Shown here: positions 1 to 17,668 of the stretch, in pieces
Layout of the letters: every line of letters starts with the position of its first letter
Position numbering within the stretch: position 1 is the first letter of the stretch
Source: a virus
Taxonomy: Duplodnaviria; Heunggongvirae; Uroviricota; Caudoviricetes
Reading direction: 5' to 3' (one strand)
Virus record (IMG/VR): IMGVR_UViG_2531839144_000012
Span: 1-26,287 of that record
Length of the DNA stretch: 26,287 bases
Notes under the pieces: model-generated
What the model saw: only the letters and a program-made list of their open reading frames with translations
The model's database searches: none
What the model was told of the DNA's origin: nothing
Program-made: the position numbers and the translations under genes

Positions 1-339
1 TTATAATTTGTTACTGTGCCACTCAAGGGCAATATCTTTGAAGGTGTTGTTTAACTGCGTTTCCCGGGCAATCTTTTCCTCTCGCTTCACTTCCATCAGA
101 TCGATTCCCCCAGAGATACCTCTTTTAGCTTCTTCAAGTTTTGCAGGAGCATCAGCTAAGGTGACCTCAGGATACACACCTAGTGCTAACAGCTTCTCTT
201 TACCAGCTACACGATACTTGAGACGCCAATATTCTCCTCCACCAGGTTTTACCAGGAGGTACAGACCACCACCATCAGCCAACTTGTAAGCCTTCTCTTT
301 TGGCTTGGCAGTGTCTATTTGACGGGCATTGAGTTTCAC
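1..339 (-). CDS. int: Tyrosine integrase, N-terminal part only (P4-type arm-binding domain); gene continues beyond window start
   Basis: Translation KLNARQIDTAKPKEKAYKLADGGGLYLLVKPGGGEYWRLKYR matches the conserved N-terminal domain of P4/CP4-57-type integrases; apparent GTG start at 339..337, upstream in-frame stop at 357..355; sits next to a tRNA 3' fragment. Confidence 0.8.
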   Translation of the reverse strand: MKLNARQIDTAKPKEKAYKLADGGGLYLLVKPGGGEYWRLKYRVAGKEKLLALGVYPEVTLADAPAKLEEAKRGISGGIDLMEVKREEKIARETQLNNTFKDIALEWHSNKL

Positions 340-493
340 TTGGGGGTATCTCCACTAAACTGAACAGCAAATCCCCTCAATTGCTTGTAGAGTTTGGGGT
401 ACTTAAATAGACGTCAAAAGACTAAAAGGGGCATTAATATACTGATTATAAGAGGTTTTTAAATACTTGAGTAGACTTGGGGAGACGTTAGAA

Positions 494-539
494 TGGTGCC
501 GATAATAGGAGTCGAACCTACGACCTTCGCATTACGAAT
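494..539 (-). other. tRNA 3'-end fragment (tRNA-Thr-like: anticodon loop TTCGTAA, variable loop, T-arm GGTTCGACTCC, acceptor 3' strand, CCA) = probable phage attachment core (attP or attR); not an intact tRNA
   Basis: Minus-strand read ATTCGTAATGCGAAGGTCGTAGGTTCGACTCCTATTATCGGCACCA has canonical T-loop, 5-bp T-stem, 7-nt acceptor strand and CCA; no D-arm or 5' acceptor strand upstream; matches my recollection of E. coli thrW 3' half. Confidence 0.6.
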
Positions 540-615
540 TATAAGAATCCGCTGCTAATTCAAAGTATTATCCCATCAACACTGCGCTCACACGTCCCAC
601 CACATCAAAACATGT

Positions 616-675
616 AAAGCCTTGCAAGCCATTGCGAGGCCTTATGTGTCTCAGTTTTGTCCCACCTTGTATTAC
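616..675. repeat. Copy 1 of a ~60-bp imperfect direct repeat; contains a 9-bp-stem hairpin (GCCTTGCAA-GCCA-TTGCGAGGC, 619-640) followed by T-rich tract
   Basis: Aligned by eye to 5128-5186 with about 7 differences over ~60 nt. Confidence 0.7.
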
Positions 676-1006
676 GACTTGCATAGCCAATGAAGATAAA
701 CGTGACGACAAACGGCGCAGCAGTCTTCTTTTCCTTCATACTTTCCCCATCCAGCATGCATACCTTTATGCCATAACTGAAGTTTATGTCTGTTATGAGC
801 GAGAAGCGGAAGTTCAACGTGATAAAGCTCAGGAACATTGTCGTTGATGATGATAAAGAGGATCAGACTAACTTAGCACTTCTCATCACGTTGATAAGGC
901 ATAGAAACCGAAAACACTATTGTGAATATCATTTCACTATAGTAAATTCAGGTAAGCTCTTTTCGTTCGTTATTACATAAAATAAAGTTCTCTCTAAGGT
1001 TGAAAA

Positions 1007-1450
1007 ATGTTAGATATCAGAATGTCACGACCATCTGAAGCATCAGAGATCATACAAATCTGGAAGAGTTCAGTGGATGCTACCCACGACTTTCTTACAG
1101 GTCATGACCGACAAGAAATCGAAAAAGAAGTTATCGGCTTTTTCTCAGAAACTCCTGTATGGGTTGCAACAAATCAGGATGACCAACCGCTAGGATTTAT
1201 GTTTTTGCATGAGGGGCATCTGGAGGCACTTTTTGTAGCAGGCTCTGCTCGCGGACTTGGCGTCGGAAAACGTTTGATCTCTCATGCACTGGCGCTGCAT
1301 CCAGAGCTAAGCGTTGATGTAAATGAACAAAACCAGCAGGCTGTAGGGTTTTATCAGCATATGGGTTTTCAGGTATCAGGGCGTTCCGAGCTGGATAATC
1401 AGGGAAGGCCATACCCCTTGTTGCATCTGAGAATGGCCAATAACATGTAA
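1007..1450 (+). CDS. GNAT-family N-acetyltransferase
   Basis: 147-aa ORF; acetyl-CoA-binding-type motif region LFVAGSARGLGVGKRLISHA and C-terminal GFYQHMGF typical of GNAT fold; alternative start ATG at 1022. Confidence 0.7.
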   Translation: MLDIRMSRPSEASEIIQIWKSSVDATHDFLTGHDRQEIEKEVIGFFSETPVWVATNQDDQPLGFMFLHEGHLEALFVAGSARGLGVGKRLISHALALHPELSVDVNEQNQQAVGFYQHMGFQVSGRSELDNQGRPYPLLHLRMANNM

Positions 1451-1470
1451 CCAATGTGGCAGAGAAGATA

Positions 1471-2055
1471 TCATTGATTTTTTTGGCTAAAAGCCACGAT
1501 GTAAGAACAGCTCTGCTCACTATCTGGATTGCTCATTTGGTACTCGCTTGCAAAGGTAAGGGCAAGACAGTCACCGGCACGTAAATGATGGGTCTGATTT
1601 TTGACTCGAAAATCAAGGCTGCCACTCATCATCCAAAGCGTTTGCCCGGAAAGATGCTCATTTGCGGAGGCGGGTATCGTCAGCTCACCCATTGCAGGGA
1701 TTTCAACTTTGATCAGTTCCGGGCATGCCCCCGCAGGAGACAAAGACCAACGGGTGATGCCTGATTGCTCATCCGTCCAGTGCTGTTGCTGATGAGCAAC
1801 ACGAACCAGGGAATTCTGATGTTGCTCAAGCTCTGCAAAGAGTTTAGATAGCGTTACATTCATGGCGTTGGCCAGGCGGCTAAGGATAGTTGCACTAGGG
1901 CTGGAGATGCCTCGTTCAATCTTACTAATCATGGCCTGACTGACGCCCGATCGTTGAGCAAGCTCTGTTACAGTCAAATTGCGAGCCTTCCTGTGTTTAA
2001 GCAATAAACGTGCAATATCGCTATCTACTATCTGATTTTTAAATTTTTTATCCAT
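1471..2055 (-). CDS. XRE-family HTH transcriptional regulator with C-terminal cupin-like domain
   Basis: HTH motif LTVTELAQRSGVSQAMISKIERG near N-terminus when started at MDKKFKNQ (ATG 2055..2053, preceded by GAGAGGG Shine-Dalgarno); the ORF track extension to 2238 lacks an RBS and looks non-coding. Confidence 0.7.
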   Translation of the reverse strand: MDKKFKNQIVDSDIARLLLKHRKARNLTVTELAQRSGVSQAMISKIERGISSPSATILSRLANAMNVTLSKLFAELEQHQNSLVRVAHQQQHWTDEQSGITRWSLSPAGACPELIKVEIPAMGELTIPASANEHLSGQTLWMMSGSLDFRVKNQTHHLRAGDCLALTFASEYQMSNPDSEQSCSYIVAFSQKNQ

Positions 2056-2359
2056 TTCCGCCCTCTCTTTCACCAACCTGATTATGCCATTACATAAATT
2101 GGCCTGAAATAAATGATTTTGTAAGTCTGTAAATTCACTACTCCTAAGCGCGGCACTTCGTTTATACGCACCTATGACCTTAAAATATGAGTTGGTAAGC
2201 TTAACGTCCGCTTTTGGCACATAGCAGACCAGAGACACTGGCGTAAAGCCATGGAGGATCGGTGGGAGGAGGTAAAAATCCTCTCATGCAAAAAATACGC
2301 AAAATCGATAACAGTTGGAAATCATTCAATACTCGCACTATCGGAAGTTCACCAGCCAG

Positions 2360-2393
2360 TCGTAGCACGTTCTTGCATACGACGTGGCTACGG
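2360..2393 (+). promoter_or_regulatory. Hairpin H1: 5-bp + bulge + 5-bp stem with 11-nt loop TCTTGCATACG
   Basis: CGTAGCACGT / ACGTGGCTACG pairing seen directly; homologous to hairpin at 3381-3412 with compensatory stem substitutions. Confidence 0.45.
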
Positions 2394-2487
2394 GTTTCGA
2401 GACCGACCCGATCATCAAACGAAACATAAAATTAGCTCACATTATGAGGAAAGGTATCTTTTGCGCTATGTAAATTCAAAGGGTTAG

Positions 2488-3357
<870 letters not shown>

Positions 3358-3380
3358 GTATTCAATTGATAAGATTAAAC

Positions 3381-3412
3381 CGCAGCACGTTATTGCATAC
3401 AACGTGTCTGCG
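3381..3412 (+). terminator. Hairpin H2 (CGCAGCACGT-TATTGCATACA-ACGTGTCTGCG) followed by TTTT; candidate terminator for the GIY-YIG-like gene
   Basis: Stem-loop and downstream T-run seen directly; same architecture and loop motif as H1. Confidence 0.45.
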
Positions 3413-3904
3413 TTTTCAACTCCGCCGCCCCCTATCATGATTGGACAGCACTTGCAAAAAAAAGAAATTAGTATTCTCCGCAGGACACCGGTCAGATAGT
3501 GCGGCAGATCAATGTCTGGTGAATATTGATGACCGCTGCCCGCTGATTCTATTGCCGAAACTGTGCGGGAAAAGATGTGGCAAGATATTGTTGGTAAAAA
3601 ATTCTCAGCGACTTTATGCCAGCAAATCAGTTTGCCTGGCATCCAGTATCGTGTGCGGTGGATAATGTCAAAAAACATGGGGAGTCGATTAAACAGGTAT
3701 AATCGTTAAAAACCTTCAAACTCCAGGCAAAACCCTATTTCATAGAACATGTACTTTCATCTGGTATACATGAACGAATTATGACTGCGTTAGTAAAATT
3801 ATCCTGGTTAAATTACAGGCAGAGATATATGTTCCAGTCCAGTGCGTTTTCGTTTACAATATTTATCTTTCATTATCACTTGACTTTATTAAAAGAGGTT
3901 CGTT

Positions 3905-4972
3905 GTGACGAATGTTTTTGGGAAGAGAATATATACACTGGATGTTCTGAGAGGATTTGCCGCACTTTCCGTTGTGTTATGGCATTGGCAACATTTTTTT
4001 ATGAAAAAGAATGCTGCATCTGACATAATCATAAACCGCCAACCTTTTTATGAATTTTTTTCCGTCTTTTATCATTACGGTTTATATGCTGTCGAATTGT
4101 TTTTTATGATTTCTGGATTCATATTTTTTTATCTATACGCTGACAATATACACAGCAATAAAACCTCAGCAAAAACTTTTATAGTTAACCGTGTCAGTAG
4201 ATTATATCCACTTTATATATTTACATTTGCTGTCGTGGCAATATTACAAATTATTTTCTTTAAAAGTCATAATTATTTTTTTGTTTATCCTATGAATGAC
4301 ATTTACCATGCCATTCTGAATTTATTGATGATTCAATCATGGGGATTTGAGCGAGGTTGGTCCTTCAACGCCCCGACATGGTCCGTGTCGATTGAAGTAC
4401 TTATGTATATGATATTTTTTATATTATGCAAGTTCACATCAAAAACAACATTCATATCAATTTTAATAGTTGCATTGTCGTACTACTTTTTCAAAATTAA
4501 CAATCCCATAATGATCGGCGCATTCTCTTTCTTTATTGGTGGTCTGACCTATAAAATTACGATTGCGGCCATAAAAAATATTAGCGCAAAGTTATTTTTT
4601 ATTTTTGCTTGTGTTTTTCTATTGATCTCATGGGGAGTTATCTTTACCCTGCAAGTAGCAGATATATTCTCAATTATCTTATTCGGATTTACCTCCATAA
4701 TCTTTTTCCTTGTATCAATTAGCGCAATACGAAACGATTTTGGAAAAAAAATTGAATGGTTGGGTGATATCAGTTATTCATCTTATCTTTTACATTTTCC
4801 TTTGCAAATCATTGTTGTTTATTTAGCTGACAAGATTGGCTATGGACGCGATCTTTTTTACAGCCCCAAGGTATTCATTTTATTCATGCTTACATTAATG
4901 GCAATTAGCTATATGTCATATATATTCATTGAAAAACCATCGCAACAATTCATCCGAAATAAATTTCATTAA
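3905..4972 (+). CDS. Acyltransferase-3 family integral membrane O-acyltransferase (OafA/Oac-like; candidate O-antigen/surface polysaccharide acetylase, lysogenic conversion gene)
   Basis: 355-aa highly hydrophobic multi-TM protein; N-terminal LDVLRGFAALSVVLWH and VELFFMISGF motifs typical of acyltransferase_3; GTG start with AAGAGG RBS; strongly AT-rich relative to the phage structural genes; position between tail fibre and att as in Sf6 oac. Confidence 0.8.
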   Translation: MTNVFGKRIYTLDVLRGFAALSVVLWHWQHFFMKKNAASDIIINRQPFYEFFSVFYHYGLYAVELFFMISGFIFFYLYADNIHSNKTSAKTFIVNRVSRLYPLYIFTFAVVAILQIIFFKSHNYFFVYPMNDIYHAILNLLMIQSWGFERGWSFNAPTWSVSIEVLMYMIFFILCKFTSKTTFISILIVALSYYFFKINNPIMIGAFSFFIGGLTYKITIAAIKNISAKLFFIFACVFLLISWGVIFTLQVADIFSIILFGFTSIIFFLVSISAIRNDFGKKIEWLGDISYSSYLLHFPLQIIVVYLADKIGYGRDLFYSPKVFILFMLTLMAISYMSYIFIEKPSQQFIRNKFH

Positions 4973-5127
4973 GTAAAGTCACTTTGCAATGATTAGAGTC
5001 AACACCTATTACTTTGACTCTAATCACACTGCATTTTATCCGTATGCTCTATATTCATAAAAATCGACATCAATATATAGAATGGAAATAAACGAAACCG
5101 CGTCACATCCTCAATATAGAAGCGTTC

Positions 5128-5186
5128 AAAGCCTTGCAAACCATTGCGAGGCTTTATGTGTCACAGTTTTGTCCTACTTTTATTAC
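5128..5186. repeat. Copy 2 of the ~60-bp imperfect direct repeat; hairpin GCCTTGCAA-ACCA-TTGCGAGGC (5131-5152) then TTTATGTGTCACAGTTTTG
   Basis: Aligned by eye to 616-675; lies between convergent acyltransferase (+) and tail fibre assembly (-) genes, so likely also a terminator. Confidence 0.7.
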
Positions 5187-5232
5187 ACAAAAAGAATTGA
5201 GTTACAATTAAACCGCTTCTCCTCAACAGATT

Positions 5233-5649
5233 TTATTCAGCGAAGCACGGTTCATCCGGCCACTCAATATCCGGTGCAATGCTGGTATCTGTTGCCGTCA
5301 CAGCCTCGATATAATCCAGCACAACGTTAAGTCGGGTAGTTTCTTCTTGCGTCAGTTTGCGCCCGGCCTGCAGCTTTAACTGAATCACGCTGATATTAGC
5401 CATTGCTGCGTCTGTCAGCGACTGTTTTTTCTGTTCAGCGTCAGCTACCAGTTCATCATGAGAACGTTCCGGAGTGGGTGGTGCAGTAAATCCCCCGTCT
5501 GAATACACCCAGCCGATTCCGGGCTGCTCACTGATATCAGAAATATTAATGAGCTGCTGATTATCCGGCACTGTGAATTCAGCCTCGCCATCCCAGACAA
5601 TGACATTCACAACCATCCCATTTTCAATAACTGCATATGACGCATTCAT
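5233..5649 (-). CDS. Tail fibre assembly protein (Tfa)
   Basis: Start [11 protein letters not shown] (ATG 5649..5647) overlapping stop of upstream tail fibre gene; sequence and position typical of phage tail fibre assembly chaperones. Confidence 0.7.
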   Translation of the reverse strand: MNASYAVIENGMVVNVIVWDGEAEFTVPDNQQLINISDISEQPGIGWVYSDGGFTAPPTPERSHDELVADAEQKKQSLTDAAMANISVIQLKLQAGRKLTQEETTRLNVVLDYIEAVTATDTSIAPDIEWPDEPCFAE

Positions 5650-6575
5650 TATGCAAACTCCTCGATAATACAAATTCCAGCAGCACCTTTCCCGCCCGTC
5701 ATATTAGTTCCGCTATAACCGGCATCGTATGCACCACCGCCACCTGAACCATATGCCTTACCGCTAACACCACCGCCAGCGCCTGCGCGTCCACCGCCTC
5801 CCCAGTACGATGCACCACCTTTACCGCTGACGCCGATATTCCCGGACTGACCGTCGCCTCCATCTCCACCAGTGATGCGGATATCGCCAATATTCGGTAC
5901 GCCTCCGTAACCACCGTTTGTGTTTGTGATTCCTGGTTTTCCGGCACCTTCACCTCCTGGAGCAATTAACGATGAGAACGAGCTATCACCTCCCTTGTAA
6001 CCCACTGACGCACCGACACCGCCTCCACCGCCTGCACCGATAACGACAGGATAACTATTCTCTGTCAGGGTCATTGTTGAAATAATTGTTCCACCTGCTC
6101 CACCGCCTGCACCAAAAAACGTTTCGTTACTGGATGCTGCTTTGCATCCGCCTCCTCCGCCACCGCCGCCCGTTATTGTGACCCTGATCCGTTTTGTTCC
6201 TGGTGTCGGGGTGTACGTACCTGATGACGTGAAAACCCGGGTATTCACCAAGCGTCCCACGTATCCGCTTGTATCTCCCAAACCAAGGTTTTGAAGAGCC
6301 GTTTTCACCGTGCCGTCCGATTTGATATCGCCAAACGGATTTTTGCGACTTAACAGCAGCGCGCGAAGCGCGGTAAGCAGCTGGTCATGCCGCCCCTTCT
6401 CCAGGCTGGCACCGGATGCCTCCACCACGCTGCAGAGCTCTTCCTGCAACATGTCAAAGTAGTCATCATCCAGATCGGTGGCAGGCGAGCCTGTCTGGGG
6501 GTTACCACGGGTAAAACCGTTCTTACCCGCGCCGAACTTATCCTTTTGCGCGGTTTTCGTGTCTATACGATGCAT
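5649..6575 (-). CDS. Tail fibre protein with glycine-rich (collagen-like) repeat region
   Basis: Conserved phage tail-fibre N-terminus [26 protein letters not shown] followed by long Gly-rich tract; located between baseplate genes and Tfa. Confidence 0.7.
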
Positions 6576-6578
6576 GGA

Positions 6579-7163
6579 TTACTCCGGATATTTAAAAATT
6601 ACGTAGGTATGCGACGGGCAGAGTTTGTTAAGCACGCACTCGATAACGGTGTCCCCCCAGATACGCAGTGCGGAATCGCAGGGATCGCCACATGTCATCC
6701 ATGTGGTGTTGGTGGCAGCTGGCATATTGACCTGCCAGTAATACCGCCATTCCGGCGCATTCACCGCGTCAGTACAGGCCGATGAGCAGGTGAACGTGCT
6801 TTTGTCGTATCGCGTGATGGTGGCATCTGGTCTGCCCAGGGCAGCAAGCTGCGCAAGGTAAAAATCCTCATTGATGCCACCCGCCAGGTTAACCTTCGCA
6901 TCCAGCCGTTGCTGACGCTGGCGAAGGGTCTGCGTCCCTGCCGGAATACATTCATCCGGCAGGCCGCACAGACGCTCCCAGCGGTTTATCAGTTCGGTGG
7001 TGGTGCGCGGATCCAGCTCCCGCATCAGGGCATCCGCACGCTGATGAGCACGGGTTAATGACGGTGCCGCACCGGCAATCGCCGGATCGCTGGCTGACCA
7101 CGCCGGACCAGGGGGCAACAGTGCCGACAACAGACGGATGTAATCATCGTTTGTCACGTCCAT
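6579..7163 (-). CDS. Mu gp48-like baseplate/tail protein (DUF2313, YmfQ-like)
   Basis: 194-aa ORF immediately downstream of baseplate J gene in Mu-type order; sequence recalls YmfQ/DUF2313 family. Confidence 0.65.
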
Positions 7164-8212
7164 GAAATCGTCCCCAGAACCGCCAGTTCATTTTTTGCAA
7201 TGGAGATATTGTCCGCCGGAGCAAGCAACTGATGGCTGTATTCCCCGTTCGCACCGGAAATCGCTTCACTGATACGCGATACCTTAAGCTCTCCCTGCGG
7301 ATAACCATCACGCAGCAGGAATGAACGCAACTCCGCGGTGATGGCAGCCCGTATTTCCGGTGTGTCCGGCGTCACGCGGATATGAAAATCCACTTTGTGC
7401 GCCACCGGCCTGAATACATACAAATCAGAGCCTGCCACCGGGGCCAGTGGCTCGATATGTTGTCTTGCCGCCGTTTCCGTTGATTCTTCCGGAATGGGGT
7501 TAATCAGGTCACTGCTGGCAATCATCACACCGACAGTCCCCGTTCCCATCCAGTGTCGGTATGTCCATGCGCGGGTAATGCCGGGCACTTCTTTAGCCCA
7601 GACGACATAGTCCCCGTCAGCCCCGCCCTGAGGCGTCCAGTAATACCGCTCAATGACGCGGGCGCGCCACGTTTCCAGCTCTTCAGTATCAAATCCACCT
7701 GTCAGGGTATCTGCCTCGCCGGAAGACGGCAGACCATTAACCGGCGTGACCAGGATTAATGACGTACCGTCGTCAGCGTTACCGACCGCGCCTGCACTTG
7801 AGCAGGCGATCGGCACGCGCAGGACACCACCGGTGCTGGTTGCATCGGCAGTTGCCGTGTACTGAACCAGGTCATCGCGCTGAATAACACTTCCGGCGGT
7901 CACCTTCAGGCCATCGCTGACACCTTCCCAGCGCATATACCCGCTGGCAGCCGTGGCCCCCTTGCGCGGACACCGTTTCATCGCAGCATGTCGCGCCAGC
8001 CAAGACTCATCGCACAGGTCAGGCAGCATGTTCATTGCCAGATAATCGATGTACCCGTAAACCGTATGCAGCGCCGCCGCATACACCTTTGCCCGCACGT
8101 CTTCATCCATGCGCCGGAGCGTGTCGCTGACGTCCAGCCTGGCGAATAAATCGTTACGGAGCATACTGATATTTTCTGCCAGCGTCGGGCGCTGAAATTC
8201 ACTGTCCGCCAT
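7154..8212 (-). CDS. Baseplate J-like protein (Mu gp47 homologue)
   Basis: 352-aa ORF in conserved Mu tail gene order; overlapping start/stop with neighbours. Confidence 0.75.
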
Positions 8213-8627
8213 GCGTTATCGCACTCCACAGATCATCAAAAGAAATCATTACCGGTCCGTCACGACGCCAGAGAGTGATACTGTTACCCAGTTCATTAAT
8301 CCCGGTGCGGCGGATATCCAGATCAATACGGGACACCACGCCGTCATCAATCATCCATTGCAGGCATTCGCGGATATACCCCCTTACCGTCTGCACCAGT
8401 TGATTGGTCAGTTTGCTGCGCTGAAGCAGCCACAGTCGGGAGCCGTAACGGTCATTCTGTACCGCAGGCCAGGTATCCCCCCACCATCCCATCGGGAGAT
8501 CAGCGTTGTCATCAGGCTCCGCCCGCCGCCAGGTAAACAGGGAAATCACCACGGCGCGGGTCAGCGGATCCAGCTGTGCGCTGGCGCAGGTGCGTTTACC
8601 GTTCACCGTCAGCCACAGTTCCATCAT
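8199..8627 (-). CDS. Mu gp46-like baseplate protein
   Basis: 142-aa ORF between baseplate V and baseplate J homologues, as in Mu. Confidence 0.6.
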   Translation of the reverse strand: MMELWLTVNGKRTCASAQLDPLTRAVVISLFTWRRAEPDDNADLPMGWWGDTWPAVQNDRYGSRLWLLQRSKLTNQLVQTVRGYIRECLQWMIDDGVVSRIDLDIRRTGINELGNSITLWRRDGPVMISFDDLWSAITHGGQ

Positions 8628-9172
8628 GCCTCCATCGCTTTATCAGGTTTGTCGGTGTTACTGCCCTGACCGTTCTCTCTGTGACAATGCCCGTTATAGG
8701 CAAGCCGCATCGCTGACATGGTGGTACCGCCGGAGTCGCACAGGTCTTTCACCTGTCCGGTCACTTCCAGGTCCATTTCAAAACGTGCTCTGGGCGCATT
8801 GCGAAACGTGATCGTTTTACCTGCACCGTCCACCACGATCCCCTCCCGGGTCAGCGTCACAGACTGCCCCTGATCGTCATAGACAGCCACCTCACCCGTC
8901 TGCAGCCCTTTCAGGCGGTAGCGCCGGTCCGACACCGTAACAACCACCGCATGAGAACGGTCGCCATCCGGAAACAACACCACCGCTTCCGCACCGCTGT
9001 TTGCCCTTGCGGTAAAACCGTAGGGTTCAAGATGTTCAACCCCGGCTTTGGGTTCACCGGCAATCAGGGACACATCCACAGTCTGACATTTCGTGGCGGC
9101 ACTGATGCTTTTCACCACTGCCCGCCCAATCAGGCCGAGAAGTTGTCGCTGCATGGCTTCAATCGTCCTCAT
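8624..9172 (-). CDS. Baseplate assembly protein V / spike (Mu gp45-like)
   Basis: 182-aa ORF in Mu-type order; translationally coupled to neighbours. Confidence 0.65.
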   Translation of the reverse strand: MRTIEAMQRQLLGLIGRAVVKSISAATKCQTVDVSLIAGEPKAGVEHLEPYGFTARANSGAEAVVLFPDGDRSHAVVVTVSDRRYRLKGLQTGEVAVYDDQGQSVTLTREGIVVDGAGKTITFRNAPRARFEMDLEVTGQVKDLCDSGGTTMSAMRLAYNGHCHRENGQGSNTDKPDKAMEA

Positions 9173-10251
9173 CAGAACGGGTCCTCCTGTACTCTGGCTT
9201 TTTTCTTTTTCCGCGCGCCGGGGGCTTCGGGTTCAGGCAGATAAGCATCAGGTGGGCCGACACGGATTTCCGTCAGGGTGCCGTTCTGGTCCTGAGTAAA
9301 CGTGACTTCCGAGACAAGCAGTTCGGTATTGTCGAAACCACAGACCGGATCGAAGACAATCACCCGCTGGTTGGGCTGCCACAGCGTACCGTTACCCTGT
9401 CGCCAGCCCTGCACCACATAGGTGGTTTCATCCGTCCGCGCCGCCCGTTGTCGGGCTTCAAAGTCAGCACGCGCAATACAACCTGCCCCCGTGGCCTGCC
9501 CTGTCTGCCTGATATACATCGGACGGTAACGGGCAATAAATGCGTCCTCTGTGCGGGCCCGCAGCGCGGTGGTGGTGGCTTCACCGAAATCATCGTCGTT
9601 TCCGGCACGCTGCCCCGCCACCTGGTAAACAGAAAACCGCTCCCGGATACTCTTCTCCGTATCGCAGGAAAGGATGTTTTCCCCGAGTACCAGCGCAGTA
9701 TGTGCCCGCGTTGAGCCAATACCGCCAATCACCAGCCTGCCGTGCGGGTCGTCGTAAGCCAGTGCCTGCTGCTGACCGAGTATTTTGTTGATTACCTCAA
9801 TCACCGTTTCACCGTGATCAGGCTGAACATCAGGAATAACACCCGACGGCGCACCGCTGTTCACCACCTCAATGCCGAAAGGCGCAGCAAGCGCCTGCGC
9901 AATCTGCACCAGCGAGCGTCCGTTAAACTGTGTCGGTTCGGCTGCACAGTCAATCAGGTCAGCCGTCAGACTGCGTCCGGCAATACCGGTGCTGACCGAA
10001 CGGGAATCGTAACGAACGGGCGTCGCCTCCACCCAGCCGGTGATCACCAGCTCATCACCAATCAGCACTTCCACTTTTGAACCGTTTTTAATGCGCGGCT
10101 GAAGCGTGGTGATACCCTCATCTCCCGGCCACTGGCGGGTGATCTCCACACTGAAATCCCGCGCCAGCCGTTCAATACCGGCACCGATGCGCACCGATGT
10201 CCAGCCATTCCACTCCCGGCCATTTACCCGTAGCGTGACATTGTCGTTCAT
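9172..10251 (-). CDS. Mu gp44-like tail/baseplate hub protein (late control D-like)
   Basis: 359-aa ORF between DNA circulation protein and baseplate V homologues. Confidence 0.6.
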   Translation of the reverse strand: MNDNVTLRVNGREWNGWTSVRIGAGIERLARDFSVEITRQWPGDEGITTLQPRIKNGSKVEVLIGDELVITGWVEATPVRYDSRSVSTGIAGRSLTADLIDCAAEPTQFNGRSLVQIAQALAAPFGIEVVNSGAPSGVIPDVQPDHGETVIEVINKILGQQQALAYDDPHGRLVIGGIGSTRAHTALVLGENILSCDTEKSIRERFSVYQVAGQRAGNDDDFGEATTTALRARTEDAFIARYRPMYIRQTGQATGAGCIARADFEARQRAARTDETTYVVQGWRQGNGTLWQPNQRVIVFDPVCGFDNTELLVSEVTFTQDQNGTLTEIRVGPPDAYLPEPEAPGARKKKKARVQEDPF

Positions 10252-11576
10252 TGCACTGGCACCTTCAGAGGGATCACCGGCACAAAGCCGGGATGCGTAA
10301 TGGCATTACGCCGGATAATGTCCGCGTCACGCGCCGCATTATCAAACCAGGTCGCCGCCAGCACCAGCGCGGGTAAAACCTCATCCGGCGTGCGCTGAAT
10401 GATCCGTGCAGACTGTTCAAGGCGCGTGTTGATATCCGCATTCAGATCTGCTTTCACCCGGCGCAGCGCCAGAAACAGCGCATCACTGGTTGTACGGGAC
10501 AACTCCTTATCAATTGCCGTATTCAGTGTGTCGCGAATGTCAGTCAGTTCTTCCCACGTCGGCAGGTCAACCGTGCTTTTCACCGCCGGAGCATTGTTCA
10601 GTGCCGGATGCGTGACGGAAGGCCAGTCAGTGCTCTGCGCGGGTGTTGTTGCCTGCCCCACTGCGGCATTCTGCATCACCGCGGAAGTTGTTGGCGCAGG
10701 CAATCGGGTGACGGCATACGCCGCTTCGCTGATTGCGGTCGTACGAAGGGTGCTGGCAACCACATTACGCTGCTGCGTAGCCGTGGCGGTGGTTTTACTG
10801 TCCGTTTTCCAGACGCCGCGCGGTTGCAGATCGCTGCCGAGGCTGACACCGGAAAGCGTTTTGATCATGGTGACCAGGTCGCTGGCGTTACCATAAAGGC
10901 GTTTCCCGGTACGCCACATTTTCTGCACCTGCTCAACGAAATTTTTGCCTGACCATGGCGGCGGCAGAAGTACCGAGATATCCCCCTGCAACAGCCTGGC
11001 GGCATCCGATACGGCAGAATCCACCACTTTCATCGCATCAGAAACATACCCAAGCATTGTGCCGGCATTACCGACGACGTCGTTCTGCACAAAATCTGCC
11101 ACGCCATCGATACTGAAACTACTGAAACTGTCACTGATGCAGTCATCCAGTGCAGAACAGGATGACATCAGCGTCTGCGCCGTCGCCGCACCTGATGTGG
11201 GGTAAGAGAGTTCTCCCGCTTCGACAAACTTCAGGTCAAAGCGGACAATACGCCCTTCACTCTTCGATGTGCTGACCCGAACCTCTCCGTCAACACAGAC
11301 TTTCAGCTCACCGTAAGTCGGATGGACAAGCGTGCCGGGACCGGGTTTATTCAGCGCGTCAATCAGGCGATCGCGCTGGTCAAAGCAGTCATCTCCCACC
11401 ACATAAGCTGTGATGGACGGGCGGAAAGTGATTTTCCCCAGGTCTTCGGTATAGGGTTTGTCGCGGTTCGGGTATTCGTGCGTTTCCACACGACGACCGG
11501 TTCCCGTACTTTCTTCTTCAACCTTAAACGGCACACCGCGAAATGACGCGTCCTGAAGTCTGTCTTTCCACGTCAT
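10248..11576 (-). CDS. Mu-like DNA circulation protein (gp43-like)
   Basis: Start taken at MTWKDRLQDASFRGVPF (ATG 11576..11574, GGAG RBS upstream); immediately downstream of tape measure. Confidence 0.7.
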   Translation of the reverse strand: MTWKDRLQDASFRGVPFKVEEESTGTGRRVETHEYPNRDKPYTEDLGKITFRPSITAYVVGDDCFDQRDRLIDALNKPGPGTLVHPTYGELKVCVDGEVRVSTSKSEGRIVRFDLKFVEAGELSYPTSGAATAQTLMSSCSALDDCISDSFSSFSIDGVADFVQNDVVGNAGTMLGYVSDAMKVVDSAVSDAARLLQGDISVLLPPPWSGKNFVEQVQKMWRTGKRLYGNASDLVTMIKTLSGVSLGSDLQPRGVWKTDSKTTATATQQRNVVASTLRTTAISEAAYAVTRLPAPTTSAVMQNAAVGQATTPAQSTDWPSVTHPALNNAPAVKSTVDLPTWEELTDIRDTLNTAIDKELSRTTSDALFLALRRVKADLNADINTRLEQSARIIQRTPDEVLPALVLAATWFDNAARDADIIRRNAITHPGFVPVIPLKVPVQ

Positions 11577-11636
11577 ATAAACTCCGTACATAAAAAATCC
11601 CACCGGAGTGGGACTCATTAACAGATTAATTTTTCA

Positions 11637-13472
11637 TTACCTGCCAAAGCGCGTATAGCCAACATCATGGCTGACATCAAAACCGCTGGATCGCGTTTCC
11701 ATAACCCGCATACCCGGAGGCGAATTCACAAAAGAGACCTTGATCTCACCATCAACTTTTGGCGCAGAAGCTTTGTTGATCATGAAGGGATTCGGGCCTG
11801 TGGCACCGGAGGCGTTGTTTGCCTGAGCCGGATCCACCGCCGGATAAGGAGTGTATCCCCGTGGCGGTATTCCCGTCCCATAAGCATCATAAGCACCCGC
11901 GCCCCACTGCGCCGAGTTAATGGCATCGACCGTGTCACCGGAACTGTCGGTAAACCATTCAATAATCGGCTTCAGCTTGTCCCACATATCCTGAAACCAC
12001 TTAACAACCGGTCCCCAGTTATTGATCACCATCCCCAGCGGCGACCAGGCAAAAACCTTCTTCAGAAGTTCCCAGCCTGCCTCAAAATAAGGACCAATAG
12101 TTTCCCAGAGCTTCTTGAAATAAGGTCCGACAACATCCCAGTTAGTGATAATTAATCCCGCAGCCAGAGCAATCGCCGTCGCAATCATGCCAATCGGCGT
12201 CATCGACATGATCCTGCTGACAATACTGATGGCACCGCCCACGCCCATCAATCCCAGTTTCAGAATCGCAAGACCGGCAGCAAGCCCGACAACGCCGCGA
12301 ATAACCCGGGGATTTTCATCCGCAAACTTCGTGAATTTCTCCCCCAACTCCCCCAGCCACTGCGTGATGTTCTTAGCGTCACCAGAAAATGCGCCGCCAA
12401 TAGCCGCAAGGCCGTTAGTTGCGGTCCCCGTCATTGCCTCCCACAGGTTGGACAGCGTACCAAGCTGGGCCTGAACACGTTTATTCAGGCTGGCCTGTTT
12501 ATTCATCTTCTGCTGGATCTGATCGTAGCCATCCTTTCCTTTATCGATCAGCGCATTGACCACCTGAAGGGTTTCGGCATCATCACCAAATATTGCCTTA
12601 AGTACACCTGTTCGCTTAACGTCGGTCAGTTTTCGCAGCTTTGCCAGTTGCCTGAACATGTTATCAAGACCGCCAAAACTTCCTTTGCCGTCAGTAAAAT
12701 CGAGCTGTACCCCGAGTTTCTGGCGGGCCATAACTTTATTAACGTCCCTGATTTTCTTAACGCTTAATCCGGACTGGATAACTTTTCGCAGGGCATTACC
12801 TGCCGACTCCCCGTTCATCCCCATCTGATCCATCATGACGCTGATGGGGGCAAGGCTCTGTGCAGCCTGAAGACCATCCTTGTTCACCATCTTCAGAACA
12901 GAACTGGTTTTAGTGAAGAAGGACAACATGTTGGTATCGTCAACGCCCAGATAAAACGCCTTCTGGATAGTGTCGAACAGCCCCATCATGTCTTCTGACG
13001 CCGTTCCGGTAGCATCCTGCATCTTTGCAGCAAACTCAGCAGCCGCTTCCGGTGTTTTTTTCAGTTGTACCGCAAGATAAGCTGTCGCTTTACCCACACC
13101 ACCCAGAATGTTTTCTGCCGGGATCCCCTGACGCACCAGCATCTGCATCATGTTCTGGAAATCAGCCGTTGTACCAGGTAGCTGGTTACCCAGGCCAATA
13201 GCCAGTTTATTGATGTCCTGAAAGCTCTTTCCAACCTCGCCGTTCGCATCCATCATGGCAACTTTCAGCCCGGTGGCGGCGTTTTCCTGATCGGCATAAG
13301 ATTTCAGGGAAAGCGTCAGACCCGCTGCCAGTCCGCCACCAAGCGCCAGCCCACCCTGTGACGCTTCTTCCGCCTGGCGTTTAAATCCCCGGATTTTCTT
13401 TTGCATTTTCGACAGCGCGGGAGAAAGCCTGTCGACACCGGTGATCAACGCCTTAAGCTCAAATTCAGCCAT
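11637..13472 (-). CDS. Tail tape measure protein
   Basis: 611-aa ORF with Ala/Gly-rich helical repeats and C-terminal hydrophobic segment, downstream of tail chaperone. Confidence 0.85.
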   Translation of the reverse strand: MAEFELKALITGVDRLSPALSKMQKKIRGFKRQAEEASQGGLALGGGLAAGLTLSLKSYADQENAATGLKVAMMDANGEVGKSFQDINKLAIGLGNQLPGTTADFQNMMQMLVRQGIPAENILGGVGKATAYLAVQLKKTPEAAAEFAAKMQDATGTASEDMMGLFDTIQKAFYLGVDDTNMLSFFTKTSSVLKMVNKDGLQAAQSLAPISVMMDQMGMNGESAGNALRKVIQSGLSVKKIRDVNKVMARQKLGVQLDFTDGKGSFGGLDNMFRQLAKLRKLTDVKRTGVLKAIFGDDAETLQVVNALIDKGKDGYDQIQQKMNKQASLNKRVQAQLGTLSNLWEAMTGTATNGLAAIGGAFSGDAKNITQWLGELGEKFTKFADENPRVIRGVVGLAAGLAILKLGLMGVGGAISIVSRIMSMTPIGMIATAIALAAGLIITNWDVVGPYFKKLWETIGPYFEAGWELLKKVFAWSPLGMVINNWGPVVKWFQDMWDKLKPIIEWFTDSSGDTVDAINSAQWGAGAYDAYGTGIPPRGYTPYPAVDPAQANNASGATGPNPFMINKASAPKVDGEIKVSFVNSPPGMRVMETRSSGFDVSHDVGYTRFGR

Positions 13473-13647
13473 GTGTGCGTTTCTCCTGCTCTATCCTGTT
13501 TGCCTGACTGACCAGTAAGGGAATTTCACTGATCGGCATATTCAGCAATTCGAAAGGATTAATGCGCCAGTAGCTGGCGCAGTCAAAGAAGCGATCAGTG
13601 AGGTATTCAGCCGTCAGGCCTGGAGGAAAAAACCAGCCACAAGCCAC
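13465..13647 (-). CDS. -1 frame extension of tail assembly chaperone (frameshift product analogous to P2 E+E' / lambda GT)
   Basis: Open in -1 frame from slippery heptamer T TTT TTC (minus strand, plus coords 13626-13632) through to tape measure start. Confidence 0.5.
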   Translation of the reverse strand: MACGWFFPPGLTAEYLTDRFFDCASYWRINPFELLNMPISEIPLLVSQANRIEQEKRTHG

Positions 13648-13883
13648 GCCGCTGCATTCAGGTCTGCCGGAGACATCTGGTCGACAGAGCTTTGCGGCAC
13701 TTTCGCCAGCCGCACAATGTATTTCGACACCACATGCGCCAGAAGTTTGACTGACTCATCCTGATTCATCTGGTAGGGATACCCCAGCTCGCGGACATCC
13801 TTCCCGGTGGGCTCATCAAACTCCAGTACGGAGAGTGTCTCGCCATGAGCAGTAATCGGTTTCTTTAACTCAAGCTCTTTCAT
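13614..13883 (-). CDS. Tail assembly chaperone (Mu gp41 / P2 E-like), zero-frame product
   Basis: 89-aa ORF between tail tube and tape measure; ends just after a TTTTTTC slippery site. Confidence 0.6.
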   Translation of the reverse strand: MKELELKKPITAHGETLSVLEFDEPTGKDVRELGYPYQMNQDESVKLLAHVVSKYIVRLAKVPQSSVDQMSPADLNAAAWLVAGFFLQA

Positions 13884-14239
13884 TACTGGTAATCCCCTTC
13901 TTCACCGTGGAACTCAAGATCAACCGTACCTTCTTCAGCATTATGGTTCGCTTCGCCGTGCAGCCAGGCAGACGACAGTACATAGACCTGACCGTTCGCC
14001 AGCTCGGCAGTGATGGTCATCTCATCAGACGAGGTGATTTTGTTCACCGGAAAATTCTTCGGCACCTTGAAAGTCCCTTTGACATAAGGCGCACGGTGAG
14101 TTTCCTTGCGGTCCACTGAACCGTCTAGGCCGATGATGTCATCATTGACCGTCCTGTTCATGGGCACCTCAATGCCGCCGGTCAGCGATAGCTGTTGACC
14201 GTCAATTTTGAAATAACAGGTTCCCCCGATACGGGCCAT
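13883..14239 (-). CDS. Tail tube protein (Mu gp40-like)
   Basis: 118-aa ORF immediately downstream of sheath gene, stop/start overlap. Confidence 0.7.
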   Translation of the reverse strand: MARIGGTCYFKIDGQQLSLTGGIEVPMNRTVNDDIIGLDGSVDRKETHRAPYVKGTFKVPKNFPVNKITSSDEMTITAELANGQVYVLSSAWLHGEANHNAEEGTVDLEFHGEEGDYQ

Positions 14240-15735
14240 TATGCAGACTCCTCTGAATACTGAAGACGGAACTGGTTAACCACGGCAAAGACACGCAACT
14301 GGTTAACATAGTCAGGCGGGAACAGCGTGTTCAGGCGGTTCGGATCGCTGGCATCACGCTCCACAACCAGGTACTGCTTAAACAGTTCGTAGTTTTCCAC
14401 GATCCCCGCACGCTCAAGCTGACGGTAGGTTGCCAGCAGTTCCCCTTTGATCACCGCCGGGGTGACAATCGCCTGACCGGGACCAAAGCGGGTACCGTCA
14501 CTGGCAAGCTTGTGACGCCCGTACTTACTGGTAATGACGGATTTCAGTTTGCGCAGTACATACGCGCTGGTATGCAGAGTCTCACTGTCTAGGTAGCTGT
14601 TATCCGCAACCCCGTAAGCGTTTTTCCTGTACGTGGTGACATCACGCTGAATGCGCAGTACCCCGCTTTCGACATACGCCGTTGCCACGCCATGAGACAG
14701 CAGGGTCTGTTGTTCGGTCATCGTGAACCGTTTCCCCTTCGGCGCAGGCAGCATACCCACCAGCTCACCGGTCTGCGTGGGACGTGCCGGATCGTTGCGA
14801 ATAAACACCGCTGCGCGGGCGGTACGGCTTGCCGCCAGTTCGTCGGCAGGCGTCTGGGTCTCTTTTTCGTACCCCGCCAGGGTAATGTGCTGCTGGTTAA
14901 ACTGGTCACCTGCGGTCACCAGTTCTGACAGCGTGCCGATCTTTGCCGTATACACATGACCATACAGCTGACGCGCATAGCTCCAGCGACCGCTGGTATC
15001 GTTCATCTCGGTCACCAGCGTGTTAACGGAGGCCGTGTCGTTGAACGGCAGACCGATATAATCAAACGGCTCATCCGCCATTGCAGCCACCGCGCCGGTG
15101 AGAACCGGAGCACCCGTTCCGGCGGTACCCGTCGCCACGGCAATCTGTACGCCCGCTGGCAGCACTTCGCCCCCACCGAAGCCGTAGTAATTGAGGCTGA
15201 CAGGAATTTCATTCCCGCAAAGCCCCTTATGACGCGCGGTCAGTGTGACCACGCCTGCCGAAGATGAAGCCGTAAACGGCAGGGCCGGAACGGCATTGAT
15301 GGCATCTTTGATACTGCTGGCAATCGTCGTGACGTTATCGCCGTTGGTCACCGGAGCCTGCACGCGGGTACGTCCCACATAGACATTCACCGTGCCGGTT
15401 TCGGTTGCCGCCCCGGTCACCGTCAGCGTAACCGTTGCCGCCGCGCCTGTGGATTCAGGAACGGCAATCACATACAGCTCGCCAAACGGGTCGGTCTGGC
15501 GATAAGCCTCGACCATACGCGCCAGCTGACTTCCCGCACCACAAATCTGGCGTGCATAGTCTGCCGACGACATCAGTACCAGACTGTTGGCAACAATCTC
15601 TGCACCGTTATTGGCGTGACCAATCAGCAGCGATGCTCCGCTGTCCTGTGCAGTATTCGCCGCCTGGTTATCCATTTCCGCATAAAACAACGGAACCAGC
15701 GTATTCGACGGAATGGTGTTAAAGCTTATCGTCAT
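14239..15735 (-). CDS. Contractile tail sheath protein (Mu gp39-like)
   Basis: 498-aa ORF, size and position typical of sheath; followed by tube and chaperone genes. Confidence 0.85.
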   Translation of the reverse strand: MTISFNTIPSNTLVPLFYAEMDNQAANTAQDSGASLLIGHANNGAEIVANSLVLMSSADYARQICGAGSQLARMVEAYRQTDPFGELYVIAVPESTGAAATVTLTVTGAATETGTVNVYVGRTRVQAPVTNGDNVTTIASSIKDAINAVPALPFTASSSAGVVTLTARHKGLCGNEIPVSLNYYGFGGGEVLPAGVQIAVATGTAGTGAPVLTGAVAAMADEPFDYIGLPFNDTASVNTLVTEMNDTSGRWSYARQLYGHVYTAKIGTLSELVTAGDQFNQQHITLAGYEKETQTPADELAASRTARAAVFIRNDPARPTQTGELVGMLPAPKGKRFTMTEQQTLLSHGVATAYVESGVLRIQRDVTTYRKNAYGVADNSYLDSETLHTSAYVLRKLKSVITSKYGRHKLASDGTRFGPGQAIVTPAVIKGELLATYRQLERAGIVENYELFKQYLVVERDASDPNRLNTLFPPDYVNQLRVFAVVNQFRLQYSEESA

Positions 15736-15889
15736 CGGTATTCACCTTTTTATTCACGCGCCGGATATCACCCGCTGCTTCACGGCGCAGCCAGTAGTTG
15801 TTCTCGTCAACATTTCGCCCTTCGGCGGGCAAAAGGTCGCCGCGGGCAGGGTCAGGAACTGACCGCCCTTTAACAGGTTTGACAAACAT
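15719..15889 (-). CDS. Small conserved protein upstream of sheath (DUF2635-like), 56 aa
   Basis: Hand-translated MFVKPVKGRSVPDPARGDLLPAEGRNVDENNYWLRREAAGDIRRVNKKVNTDDDKL; below the ORF track length cutoff; stop overlaps sheath start. Confidence 0.5.
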   Translation of the reverse strand: MFVKPVKGRSVPDPARGDLLPAEGRNVDENNYWLRREAAGDIRRVNKKVNTDDDKL

Positions 15890-15897
15890 GAGGATCC

Positions 15898-16458
15898 TCA
15901 GGAAGGAAGGGTTATTTCGGTGTGATGTTCGATATCGCCGTCAGGCCCGTTACCGAGATCGAGATAATCAACATCAATCGCCAGCGTTCGCAGTTCATCC
16001 AGACTGTTCAGCTCATCCTGCTGGCGGGTATCGTCTTCGGTCAGCTCGCTGATGACCGAAAAATCGAACTGATAAATCAGCTCATGACGATTCAGATCCA
16101 GCAGCGTGCCGCCGTCATAGGTAATCGGGTTACCGCACGCTTCCGGGTTCCAGCCCAGAAGGGCCTTAAAGAGCATCTGCCGGACTTCGTCCACCACATC
16201 ATACGAAGCAAACTGACCGCGCTCATCACGTCCGTTACTCAGTATGACAACCACGGAGAAGCCCTCTTTCAGCTCCTGCCAGTAGTCGGTCTGGCTTTTG
16301 TTTTCTCCCGGAGAGTCATCACCCGGTACCACATACGCCGCCGGGAGTCTCAGCTTTCCGACCTCCGGCAGATTTTTGAACTGTGCCGCGCCTGCCACCC
16401 GGTTTTCAAAATACGGGCAGCGGGCACGCAGCGCAGCAATAACAGGCGTCAGTTTCAT
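15898..16458 (-). CDS. Mu gp37-like protein (DUF1834-like)
   Basis: 186-aa ORF in conserved position upstream of sheath cluster. Confidence 0.5.
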   Translation of the reverse strand: MKLTPVIAALRARCPYFENRVAGAAQFKNLPEVGKLRLPAAYVVPGDDSPGENKSQTDYWQELKEGFSVVVILSNGRDERGQFASYDVVDEVRQMLFKALLGWNPEACGNPITYDGGTLLDLNRHELIYQFDFSVISELTEDDTRQQDELNSLDELRTLAIDVDYLDLGNGPDGDIEHHTEITLPS

Positions 16459-17666: not shown

Positions 17667-17668
17667 AC

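Follow-up and report, generated by a model that had tools for sequence, protein, structure and literature searches.

A membrane acyltransferase gene in the cargo slot of an SfII/SfV-type Escherichia coli prophage: a candidate for O-antigen modification

Does a membrane acyltransferase gene that lies between the tail-fibre genes and the attachment site of an E. coli prophage alter the surface of the lysogen and, if so, which sugar does its product modify? The gene was found on a stretch of 26,287 nucleotides (IMG/VR record IMGVR_UViG_2531839144_000012), the whole of which was analysed and is referred to here as the window. An initial annotation, made from the sequence alone, had proposed an ‘Oac-like’ multi-transmembrane enzyme at positions 3905-4972, probably responsible for serotype conversion. 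The gene and its ribosome-binding site were located as follows:

3905..4972, plus strand: AT3-only membrane acyltransferase gene, 355 aa (open reading frame and PF01757 match)
3894..3898, plus strand: Shine-Dalgarno-like AGAGG, 6 nt 5′ of the GTG start, read from the sequence

The proposed interval proved to be an exact open reading frame, and the same 1068-bp coding sequence is annotated in RefSeq in related E. coli genomes. A profile search with Acyl_transf_3 (PF01757), which the initial annotation had suggested as a check, returned E=2.3e-24 and 86.5 bits (cut-off 31), with protein residues 10-334 aligned to profile positions 2-320 of 326; the protein also matched PHROG 3333, ‘O-acetyltransferase’ (E=1.5e-40). 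In an alignment with 21 homologues, R16-X10-H27, R96xxR99 (R96-V-S-R99), E164 and E343 were invariant. Within the AT3 family, the R-X10-H motif of TMH1 is reported to be absolutely conserved and essential, and the RXXR motif, on the cytoplasmic side of TMH3, to be essential as well (PMC9833829). An AlphaFold (AF2) model contained ten long helices (mean pLDDT 89.5, pTM 0.89), which are predicted to span the membrane, in keeping with the multi-transmembrane protein first proposed. The protein ends at residue 355, straight after its single PF01757 domain, and carries no fused SGNH domain.

Fold searches gained nothing over the Pfam result: Foldseek detected nothing significant in the PDB (best E=0.2) and no solved AT3 structure was found, while a search of BFVD returned a single match, an unnamed 637-aa viral protein (TM 0.62). 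No NCBIfam equivalog matched, models of enterobacterial families included. A megablast search with the gene found no match in 50,697 phage records and, at the protein level, the best among named phages were 26-28% identical.

The gene has a GC content of 31.6%, against 55.6% for the structural genes (6579-23435), so the AT-richness noted at the outset is real. It was present in 49 of 5426 complete E. coli genomes (~1%) and at several integration sites. Its alleles are under purifying selection (pN/pS 0.04-0.26 among 10 distinct alleles). Two of 16 sampled copies (loci L107 and L108) carry a frameshift or indel, and a truncated version of 331 aa forms protein cluster P0004.

The identity of the prophage was approached through its morphogenesis module and the end of the window that bears the attachment site:

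494..539, minus strand: 46-nt att core of the prophage, identical to the 3′ end of the tRNA-Thr gene thrW
597..668, plus strand: copy 1 of a 72-nt direct repeat, within the attP arm
1..339, minus strand: P4-type integrase arm-domain fragment, 112 aa (PF13356 only), outside the att core

Window positions 6274-23900, the morphogenesis module, are 97-98% identical at the nucleotide level to SfII, SfI, SfIV and SfV. The att core is an exact 46-nt match to K-12 thrW, and the att core published for SfI, SfII, SfV, SfX and P22 is the same 46-nt string (PMC3636060). Homology to the attP arm of SfII begins at 492, and the SfII counterpart of the first repeat copy carries a terminator annotation; a tRNA search of the window found no complete tRNA. 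Judged by these sequence matches, the prophage is an E. coli element of SfII/SfV type, integrated at thrW and closely related to the Shigella serotype-converting phages.

Of the ‘att/int’ pair in the initial annotation, the attachment site was thus recovered; the supposed int was not. We rejected the fragment at 1-339 as the integrase of this prophage because it lies beyond the att core, comprises only 112 aa and has its matches elsewhere: an annotated pseudogene next to the vat island of E. coli 2009C-3133 shares 99% identity with it, and a 90%-identical N-terminal arm region forms part of a full-length, satellite-type integrase beside satellite-like genes in strain a15. It is most likely what remains of an adjacent island at thrW.

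Between the attachment site and the structural genes, the acyltransferase gene is accompanied by the following:

1007-1450, plus strand: GNAT acetyltransferase gene, neighbouring cargo
1471-2238, minus strand: HTH/cupin regulator gene, neighbouring cargo
2533..3357, plus strand: GIY-YIG protein gene, neighbouring cargo (PF22945; PD-T4-3 anti-phage defence model)
5233..5673, minus strand: tail-fibre assembly protein gene, tfa (PF02413, E=7e-21), convergent with the acyltransferase gene
5649..6575, minus strand: tail fibre gene (PF21722) with a variable glycine-rich tip

The gene does sit between the tail fibre genes and att, as first described, but it does not adjoin att: ~3.4 kb with three other cargo genes intervene. 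In SfI/SfII/SfV-type phages, O-antigen modification genes adjoin attP (PMC3636060). The claim that this is a position used for such genes held up, given that oacD of SfII occupies the same place, convergent with tfa, in a phage whose structural genes are 97-98% identical. No gtr families, and hence no gtrA-gtrB-gtr(type) cluster beside att, were found among the open reading frames between att and tfa.

The surroundings of the slot are a mosaic of swapped cargo. E. coli Z247 has the same GNAT and HTH/cupin pair, there at the end of a different prophage, and related prophages carry a restriction-modification (RM) system, SIR2, McrA or a retron in the same slot. On the other side, nucleotide homology to the Sf phages starts at 6274, within the tail fibre gene, the N-terminal ~103 aa of whose product are common to SfII and e14-type phages (94% identical to SfII). 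Co-variation of the acyltransferase with one fibre tip was ruled out. At least three different tips accompany it, so a specific tie to the phage’s own receptor is not evident.

Three further elements flank the gene:

3358..3904, plus strand: non-coding upstream region of 547 bp that travels with the gene; presumed promoter location
4985..5033, plus strand: strong hairpin, candidate terminator, 13 nt past the stop codon, with a 13-bp perfect stem
5109..5180, plus strand: copy 2 of the 72-nt direct repeat, candidate terminator separating the acyltransferase gene from tfa

The upstream region is 97-99% identical in all loci that carry the acyltransferase, including L104, which has no GIY-YIG gene. 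A sigma-70 scan 5′ of the acyltransferase start found no consensus site, with site counts below shuffle expectation, and an Rfam scan of 300-5400 returned nothing real. Operons of the gtr type have a Dam/OxyR phase-variation arrangement; a single GATC lies upstream of the acyltransferase gene, which therefore shows no sign of such an arrangement. The hairpin at 4985..5033 (fold energy -19.8 kcal/mol, z=-5.9) is kept in all acyltransferase-carrying loci, and the second repeat copy contains a 12-bp hairpin (5128-5155) followed by a T-rich tract (-20 kcal/mol, z=-3.9). With its own Shine-Dalgarno sequence, an upstream region that moves with it and a pair of strong hairpins downstream, the gene looks self-contained, and we regard it as a horizontally acquired moron in a variable cargo slot.

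As the product of an intact gene in the cargo slot of a relative of serotype-converting phages, the enzyme most likely acylates a sugar on the lysogen surface. The reading towards which we lean, with modest confidence and by analogy with characterised systems, is that the enzyme O-acylates the O-antigen and is encoded by a lysogenic-conversion gene of this thrW prophage. On its side we count the AT3 motifs, the fold, the phage lineage, the oacD slot, the corresponding slot in Citrobacter, the relatives placed with receptor-binding genes in other tail lineages, the O-antigen and rml contexts of homologues, the self-contained character of the gene, the PHROG 3333 match shared with Sf6 Oac and low pN/pS. 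Against it we count the want of a significant pairwise match to proven O-antigen enzymes, the non-glycan contexts of many homologues, the failure to find a promoter, the variety of fibre tips (at least three) and the two indel copies among 16.

Homologues were surveyed for what they might reveal of the acceptor. Relatives in the subfamily are 43-86% identical over their full length and share 74 invariant residues. The closest, from Citrobacter (86% identity), lies in the order host genes, AT3 gene, a 144-aa open reading frame weakly similar to the window tfa, and fibre gene; on this gene order the cargo slot is conserved across genera. In Klebsiella aerogenes, Serratia and a metagenome, relatives at 46-50% identity are surrounded by the receptor-binding genes of different tail lineages. 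A relative in P. savastanoi (43% identity) resides inside an O-antigen cluster with wzt, GT4, GT2 and rmlA/D/B and, across 80 species-representative genome loci, rmlBDAC lay upstream of the homologue in 11-12, at distances from abutting to ~8 kb. Many other homologues are found outside glycan loci; examples are an orphan in Kluyvera and, in fluorescent Pseudomonas, a neighbour of an FAD-dependent protein. A Pfam survey of neighbours at 40 species-representative loci gave mixed contexts and so lends a glycan role partial support only. A search of the literature found no relative in the Citrobacter/Klebsiella/Serratia/Pseudomonas subfamily with an experimentally defined substrate. The initial annotation had conceded that its case would fail if the best homology were to peptidoglycan or other non-O-antigen acyltransferases of chromosomal origin; the best homologues turned out to be prophage-borne or to be located within or next to O-antigen and rhamnose clusters, with no peptidoglycan, OPG or ECA enzyme among them.

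The same survey bears on the alternative that survives best, doubtful as we judge it: that the enzyme is active on some other envelope glycan (ECA, group 1/4 capsule or colanic acid, LPS core or periplasmic glucans) and leaves the O-serotype unchanged. AT3-only proteins are known for ECA (WecH), OPG (OpgC) and exopolysaccharides (PMC9558356). Several fibre tips and integration sites would agree better with a conserved acceptor than with a single O-type, and the N-terminal 69 aa are 36% identical to WecH. The Klebsiella and Serratia relatives, moreover, adjoin beta-helix tailspikes, and such tailspikes often target capsule. Set against this, the resemblance to WecH is confined to the region of the TM1 motif, that to OpgC is insignificant and no NCBIfam equivalog was matched; the phage lineage and slot are those that serve O-antigen modification, and the Pseudomonas relatives are in or beside O-antigen and rhamnose loci.

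A broader proposal, which we consider rather unlikely, is that this AT3 subfamily is a dedicated partner of phage receptor-binding modules, with an acceptor that may be, in place of the serotype-specific O-unit, a conserved envelope glycan (ECA or core) or a common sugar (rhamnose or GlcNAc). Members recur next to fibre or tailspike genes; at least three distinct tail lineages are involved, and four genera. Were the acceptor conserved, one enzyme could move between serotypes and provide broad receptor masking alongside PD-T4-3.

Improbable, in our view, is a main role in defence against unrelated phages, in which the acyltransferase would mask receptors as part of an islet with PD-T4-3 and would serve neither serotype conversion nor self-exclusion. 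The adjoining GIY-YIG protein matches the PADLOC PD-T4-3 model over its full length (E=3.8e-140), RM, SIR2, McrA and retron genes fill the same slot in related prophages and the acyltransferase is not bound to one fibre tip. The acyltransferase itself, however, has no PADLOC match, and the two genes are separable: locus L179 has the GIY-YIG gene without the AT3 gene, while L104 and Citrobacter have the AT3 gene without the GIY-YIG gene. The mechanism in any case overlaps with O-antigen modification and does not exclude it.

Least probable of all is a silent or decaying passenger, functionless in the lysogen, that was carried along into a recombination hotspot where the prophage ends, a reading which can point to the absence of a recognisable promoter, the atypical GC content, the mosaic slot, the indel or frameshift copies and the truncated cluster, but which sits badly with an intact frame holding all essential residues, with low pN/pS, with 86% protein conservation in the same slot in Citrobacter and with an upstream region and downstream hairpins conserved along with the gene.

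Under the O-antigen reading, a course of events can be sketched by analogy with characterised AT3-only enzymes. If expressed in the lysogen, the protein is predicted to be active in the inner membrane, where cytoplasmic acyl-CoA would supply it with an acyl group, most likely acetyl. The group would pass through a membrane pore lined by R16, H27, R96 and R99 and, once on the periplasmic side, would form an ester with a sugar hydroxyl of an envelope polysaccharide, the likeliest acceptor being the O-antigen repeat unit or polymer. The outcome would be an altered surface antigen on the lysogen and altered susceptibility to O-antigen-dependent phages.

The acyltransferase gene is an ordinary, expected and known kind of prophage cargo. 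If its product does acylate the O-antigen, ~1% of complete E. coli genomes would carry this phage-borne modification, and O-factors and phage susceptibility could change with no change in the O-antigen locus, which would be relevant to genome-based serotyping, glycoconjugate vaccine design and the choice of therapeutic phages. The Shigella SfII/oacD paradigm would then take in E. coli, commensal as well as pathogenic, and Citrobacter, and a substrate would be defined for a widespread AT3 subfamily found near phage receptor-binding genes and Pseudomonas rhamnose and O-antigen genes.

Known enzymes resemble this one to differing degrees. WecH and OpgC of E. coli K-12 (ECA O-acetyltransferase and OPG succinyltransferase, respectively) are likewise AT3-only inner-membrane proteins of similar size; they differ in being encoded by chromosomal core genes rather than phage cargo, and in BLASTP WecH aligned only over N-terminal residues 7-75 (E=1.4e-5), while OpgC gave E=1.3. 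OafB/GtrC of Salmonella phage BTP1 and OafA, O-antigen acetyltransferases of AT3-SGNH type, share the R-X10-H and RXXR motifs, and the AT3 domain of OafB aligned over its full length (22.7% identity, E=3e-5). BTP1 also integrates at thrW, with an att arm that contains the same hairpin element. OafB, however, has 640 aa, whereas the 355-aa protein studied here has no periplasmic SGNH domain of the kind fused C-terminally in OafA, OafB and OatA, so the final transfer step would fall to the AT3 domain itself or to a partner protein.

The label ‘Oac-like’ stands at the level of the family (Pfam and PHROG 3333) and falls at the level of pairs: single-pair BLASTP against Oac and OacD, two enzymes with a proven O-antigen substrate, gave no significant match. 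Oac (OacA) of Sf6, which 2-O-acetylates O-antigen rhamnose, is AT3-only and has PF01757 and PHROG 3333 in common with the acyltransferase, and its gene lies between the receptor-binding gene and int/att as a moron equipped with a promoter and a terminator of its own. Its BLASTP alignment, by contrast, covered only 86 C-terminal residues (E=0.011), and Sf6 is a tailspike-bearing, P22-like podovirus, in contrast to the SfII-type phage with a contractile tail considered here.

Separately, the ‘lysogenic conversion protein’ annotated in ZYS9073 was considered as an OacD homologue and ruled out, having no similarity and no Pfam match.

The nearest counterpart in setting is oacD of SfII, whose product (SfII_25) is credited in PMC9558356 with 6-O-acetylation of O-antigen GlcNAc. 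The proteins diverge in sequence (BLASTP E=0.09), OacD has no PHROG 3333 match and in SfII it is gtrA/B/II that adjoin attP, where the window instead has the GNAT, HTH and PD-T4-3 genes. Both are nevertheless PF01757 proteins of ~350 aa without an SGNH domain, each gene is followed by a terminator-like hairpin, and the two genes lie in the same phage lineage and in the same slot and orientation, convergent with tfa on its attP side.

The open reading frame at 3905–4972 (plus strand, 355 aa) has exactly the coordinates given in the initial annotation; it begins with a GTG codon, AGAGG lying 6 nt 5′ of it, and the same 1068-bp CDS appears as ‘acyltransferase family protein’ in the RefSeq annotation of related E. 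coli genomes. Its assignment to the acyltransferase-3 (AT3) family was confirmed using Pfam, where PF01757 (Acyl_transf_3) covered the full length of the protein (E = 2.3e-24; score 86.5 bits, cut-off 31 bits), and PHROGs assigned it to phrog_3333, ‘O-acetyltransferase’ (E = 1.5e-40). It is also, as first claimed, AT-rich compared with the structural genes (31.6% GC versus 55.6% for the module at 6579–23435). Two motifs reported to be essential for AT3 function, R-X10-H in TMH1 and RXXR in TMH3 (PMC9833829), are present as R16 + H27 and R96 + R99; these residues, together with E164 and E343, do not vary when 21 homologues are aligned. From the same alignment AlphaFold gave a confident model (pLDDT 89.5, pTM 0.89) with ten long predicted helices, which fits the ten-helix AT3 fold; as the protein has no SGNH domain, it classes as an ‘AT3-only’ enzyme. 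Comparison of the window copy with ten distinct E. coli alleles gave pN/pS values of 0.04–0.26, indicating purifying selection, and indels occurred in two of 16 sampled copies. This is a real, intact, phage-borne AT3-only gene. Its surroundings are as follows.

Features at the att end of the prophage
1–339, minus: P4-type integrase arm-domain fragment, 112 aa, beyond the att core (340–493 lies between)
494–539, minus: att core, 46-nt thrW match
597–668, plus: hairpin-containing repeat, copy 1
1007–1450, plus: GNAT acetyltransferase
1471–2238, minus: HTH/cupin regulator
2533–3357, plus: GIY-YIG protein
between the GIY-YIG gene and the acyltransferase: 547-bp spacer
3905–4972, plus: acyltransferase
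4985–5033: hairpin 3′ of the acyltransferase
5109–5180, plus: repeat, copy 2
5233–5673, minus: tail-fibre assembly gene (tfa)
5649–6575, minus: tail fibre

From 6274 to 23900, spanning the fibre N-terminus, baseplate, tail, head and terminase, the window shares 97–98% nucleotide identity with SfII, SfI, SfIV and SfV, which are serotype-converting phages of Shigella flexneri. Homology to SfII returns at 492–661 (97.6% to the attP arm between int and gtrA). Here the 46 nt at 494–539 (minus strand) match the 3′ end of E. coli thrW (tRNA-Thr) exactly, and they are identical to the att core published for SfI, SfII, SfV, SfX and P22 (PMC3636060). ARAGORN found no complete tRNA in the window, so this is a partial att copy marking a prophage end without int. 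The integrase fragment most likely does not belong to this phage but is left over from a neighbouring island at thrW: it is only 112 aa long, lies beyond the att core, and shares 99% identity with a sequence annotated as a pseudogene next to a MarR/vat island in E. coli 2009C-3133. Strain a15 has a full-length integrase, with satellite-like genes on either side, whose N-terminal arm region is 90% identical to the fragment. Its place immediately beyond the att core and its match to the pseudogene beside the vat autotransporter island suggest that the prophage and a degraded island occupy thrW in tandem.

The slot between tfa and att is a cargo hotspot, carrying in related E. coli prophages a restriction–modification (RM) system with DinI, a lipase, SIR2, a ‘lysogenic conversion protein’, a retron, or pin with McrA. 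In the window, the LEM-3-like GIY-YIG protein adjoining the acyltransferase matches, over its full length, the PADLOC model for PD-T4-3, a single-gene anti-phage system (E = 3.8e-140). The two genes are separable: the compared locus L179 has the GIY-YIG gene without the acyltransferase, and L104 and Citrobacter the reverse. The att-proximal cargo (1007–2238) is a divergently arranged GNAT gene (NCBIfam PRK10514 equivalog, E = 7.5e-69) and HTH/cupin regulator, a pair that also ends an unrelated prophage in E. coli Z247. A second AT-rich islet (24078–25265, plus; 38–40% GC), between the HNH/terminase and lysis genes, contains two ORFs that run opposite to the phage late genes: one of 182 aa that matches no family, and one of 186 aa for a ClpP-like protease (PF00574, E = 2e-12).

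The entire cargo region is flanked by the 72-nt direct repeat (81% identity between copies), each copy of which forms a strong terminator-like hairpin. Copy 1 is part of the thrW attP arm and has counterparts in SfII and, close to int, in BTP1. Copy 2 accompanies the acyltransferase even in a dusA-integrating relative. The two repeats could mark the limits within which cargo is exchanged by recombination. The 547-bp upstream region is conserved among loci with the acyltransferase, and two strong hairpins (z = −5.9 and z = −3.9) follow the gene, which together suggest an autonomous, moron-type transcription unit; a promoter search for the gene identified none.

Among 5426 complete E. coli genomes, 49 carry the gene (~99% identity), with copies at several sites in the chromosome; it is also present at 97–100% identity on 11 IMG/VR contigs. 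A nucleotide search of the isolated-phage collection gave no match. A 43,680-bp circular sequence from E. coli AH02 (‘plasmid unnamed3’, NZ_CP081704.1; our L001) is a whole phage genome carrying the acyltransferase; it probably represents a prophage, excised or replicating, that was taken for a plasmid in the assembly. It has a dusA-fragment attP and its own dusA-type integrase, and its cargo slot is occupied by DinI plus a type II RM system; the AH02 chromosome bears a further acyltransferase copy.

Full-length relatives are numerous. In Citrobacter freundii (86% identity) a similar prophage has the AT3 gene as its sole cargo in the interval separating host genes from the fibre region, next to a 144-aa ORF weakly similar to the window tfa. 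The genes in Klebsiella aerogenes and Serratia (46–49%) point the opposite way within the receptor-binding array of Mu-type tails, with a Gp53-like fibre gene on one side and large tailspike-like receptor-binding genes (beta-helix in Klebsiella) on the other, and a metagenomic relative (50%) occupies the same position in another tail lineage (Wedge1/Apex type). The Pseudomonas savastanoi relative (43%) is part of an O-antigen cluster that also contains wzt, GT4, GT2 and rmlA/D/B, and an rmlBDAC operon lies upstream of the homologue, directly abutting or up to ~8 kb away, in 11–12 of 80 species-representative loci, mostly Pseudomonas. Counter-examples are an orphan homologue in Kluyvera (59%) and several in fluorescent Pseudomonas that adjoin a gene for an FAD-dependent protein. 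On balance, the subfamily is tied to surface-polysaccharide biology and phage receptor-binding modules; no member with a defined substrate emerged from the literature searched.

In Serratia marcescens prophages (L010–L013, 7660–8004), an ORF of 114 aa that has no Pfam hit shares 4 nt with the start of the AT3 homologue, an overlap that points to a co-translated partner; no equivalent was evident in the window. Another phage with a 98–99% identical baseplate (L159; IMG/VR UViG_2585427747_000001, 141–4225) has a different AT3 (26% identity, also PHROG 3333) in the equivalent slot, directly between a full P4-type integrase and tfa, and its fibre tip and tfa differ from ours.

Phage lineage, slot and the contexts of relatives make O-antigen the likeliest acceptor, at somewhat better than even chances; the main rival, a different envelope glycan, we place well below even chances. 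By analogy with AT3-only enzymes (PMC9558356, PMC9833829), the protein would bind cytoplasmic acyl-CoA and present the thioester via a central pore to H27 near the periplasmic face, where the acyl group would form an ester with a sugar hydroxyl on a glycan that is either lipid-linked or polymerised. At least three different fibre tips accompany the same acyltransferase, so specific self-exclusion via the phage’s own receptor is not supported by linkage, though it may still operate. The window fibre is itself mosaic, with a junction near 6274: the first ~103 aa share 94% identity with SfII and e14-type fibres, from which its glycine-rich C-terminal tip and tfa differ.

The initial reading of an Oac-like, probably serotype-converting gene stands in part. 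Pairwise BLASTP gave E = 0.011 over just 86 residues against Sf6 Oac, E = 0.09 against SfII OacD, 22.7% identity to the OafB AT3 domain, 26.5% to the putative O-acetyltransferase of TL-2011b, for WecH a match confined to residues 7–75 and nothing significant for OpgC; zero NCBIfam models matched. ‘Oac-like’ therefore holds for family, architecture and probable genomic role, not for orthology. The claimed positional likeness to O-antigen-modifying phages, whose modification genes lie immediately beside attP (PMC3636060), is correct, and firmer than the initial reading could foresee, apart from two details. In SfII the genes are arranged in the corresponding way, with tfa followed by a convergent ‘acyltransferase’ (SfII_25, 349 aa), an IS, gtrII-gtrB-gtrA, attP and int; the window, by contrast, lacks gtr genes, and its acyltransferase is not the att-proximal gene. 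SfII_25 corresponds to oacD, whose product carries out 6-O-acetylation of GlcNAc in the O-antigen (Sun et al. 2014, cited in PMC9558356), and the window acyltransferase occupies the canonical O-antigen-modification slot of an SfII-type prophage.
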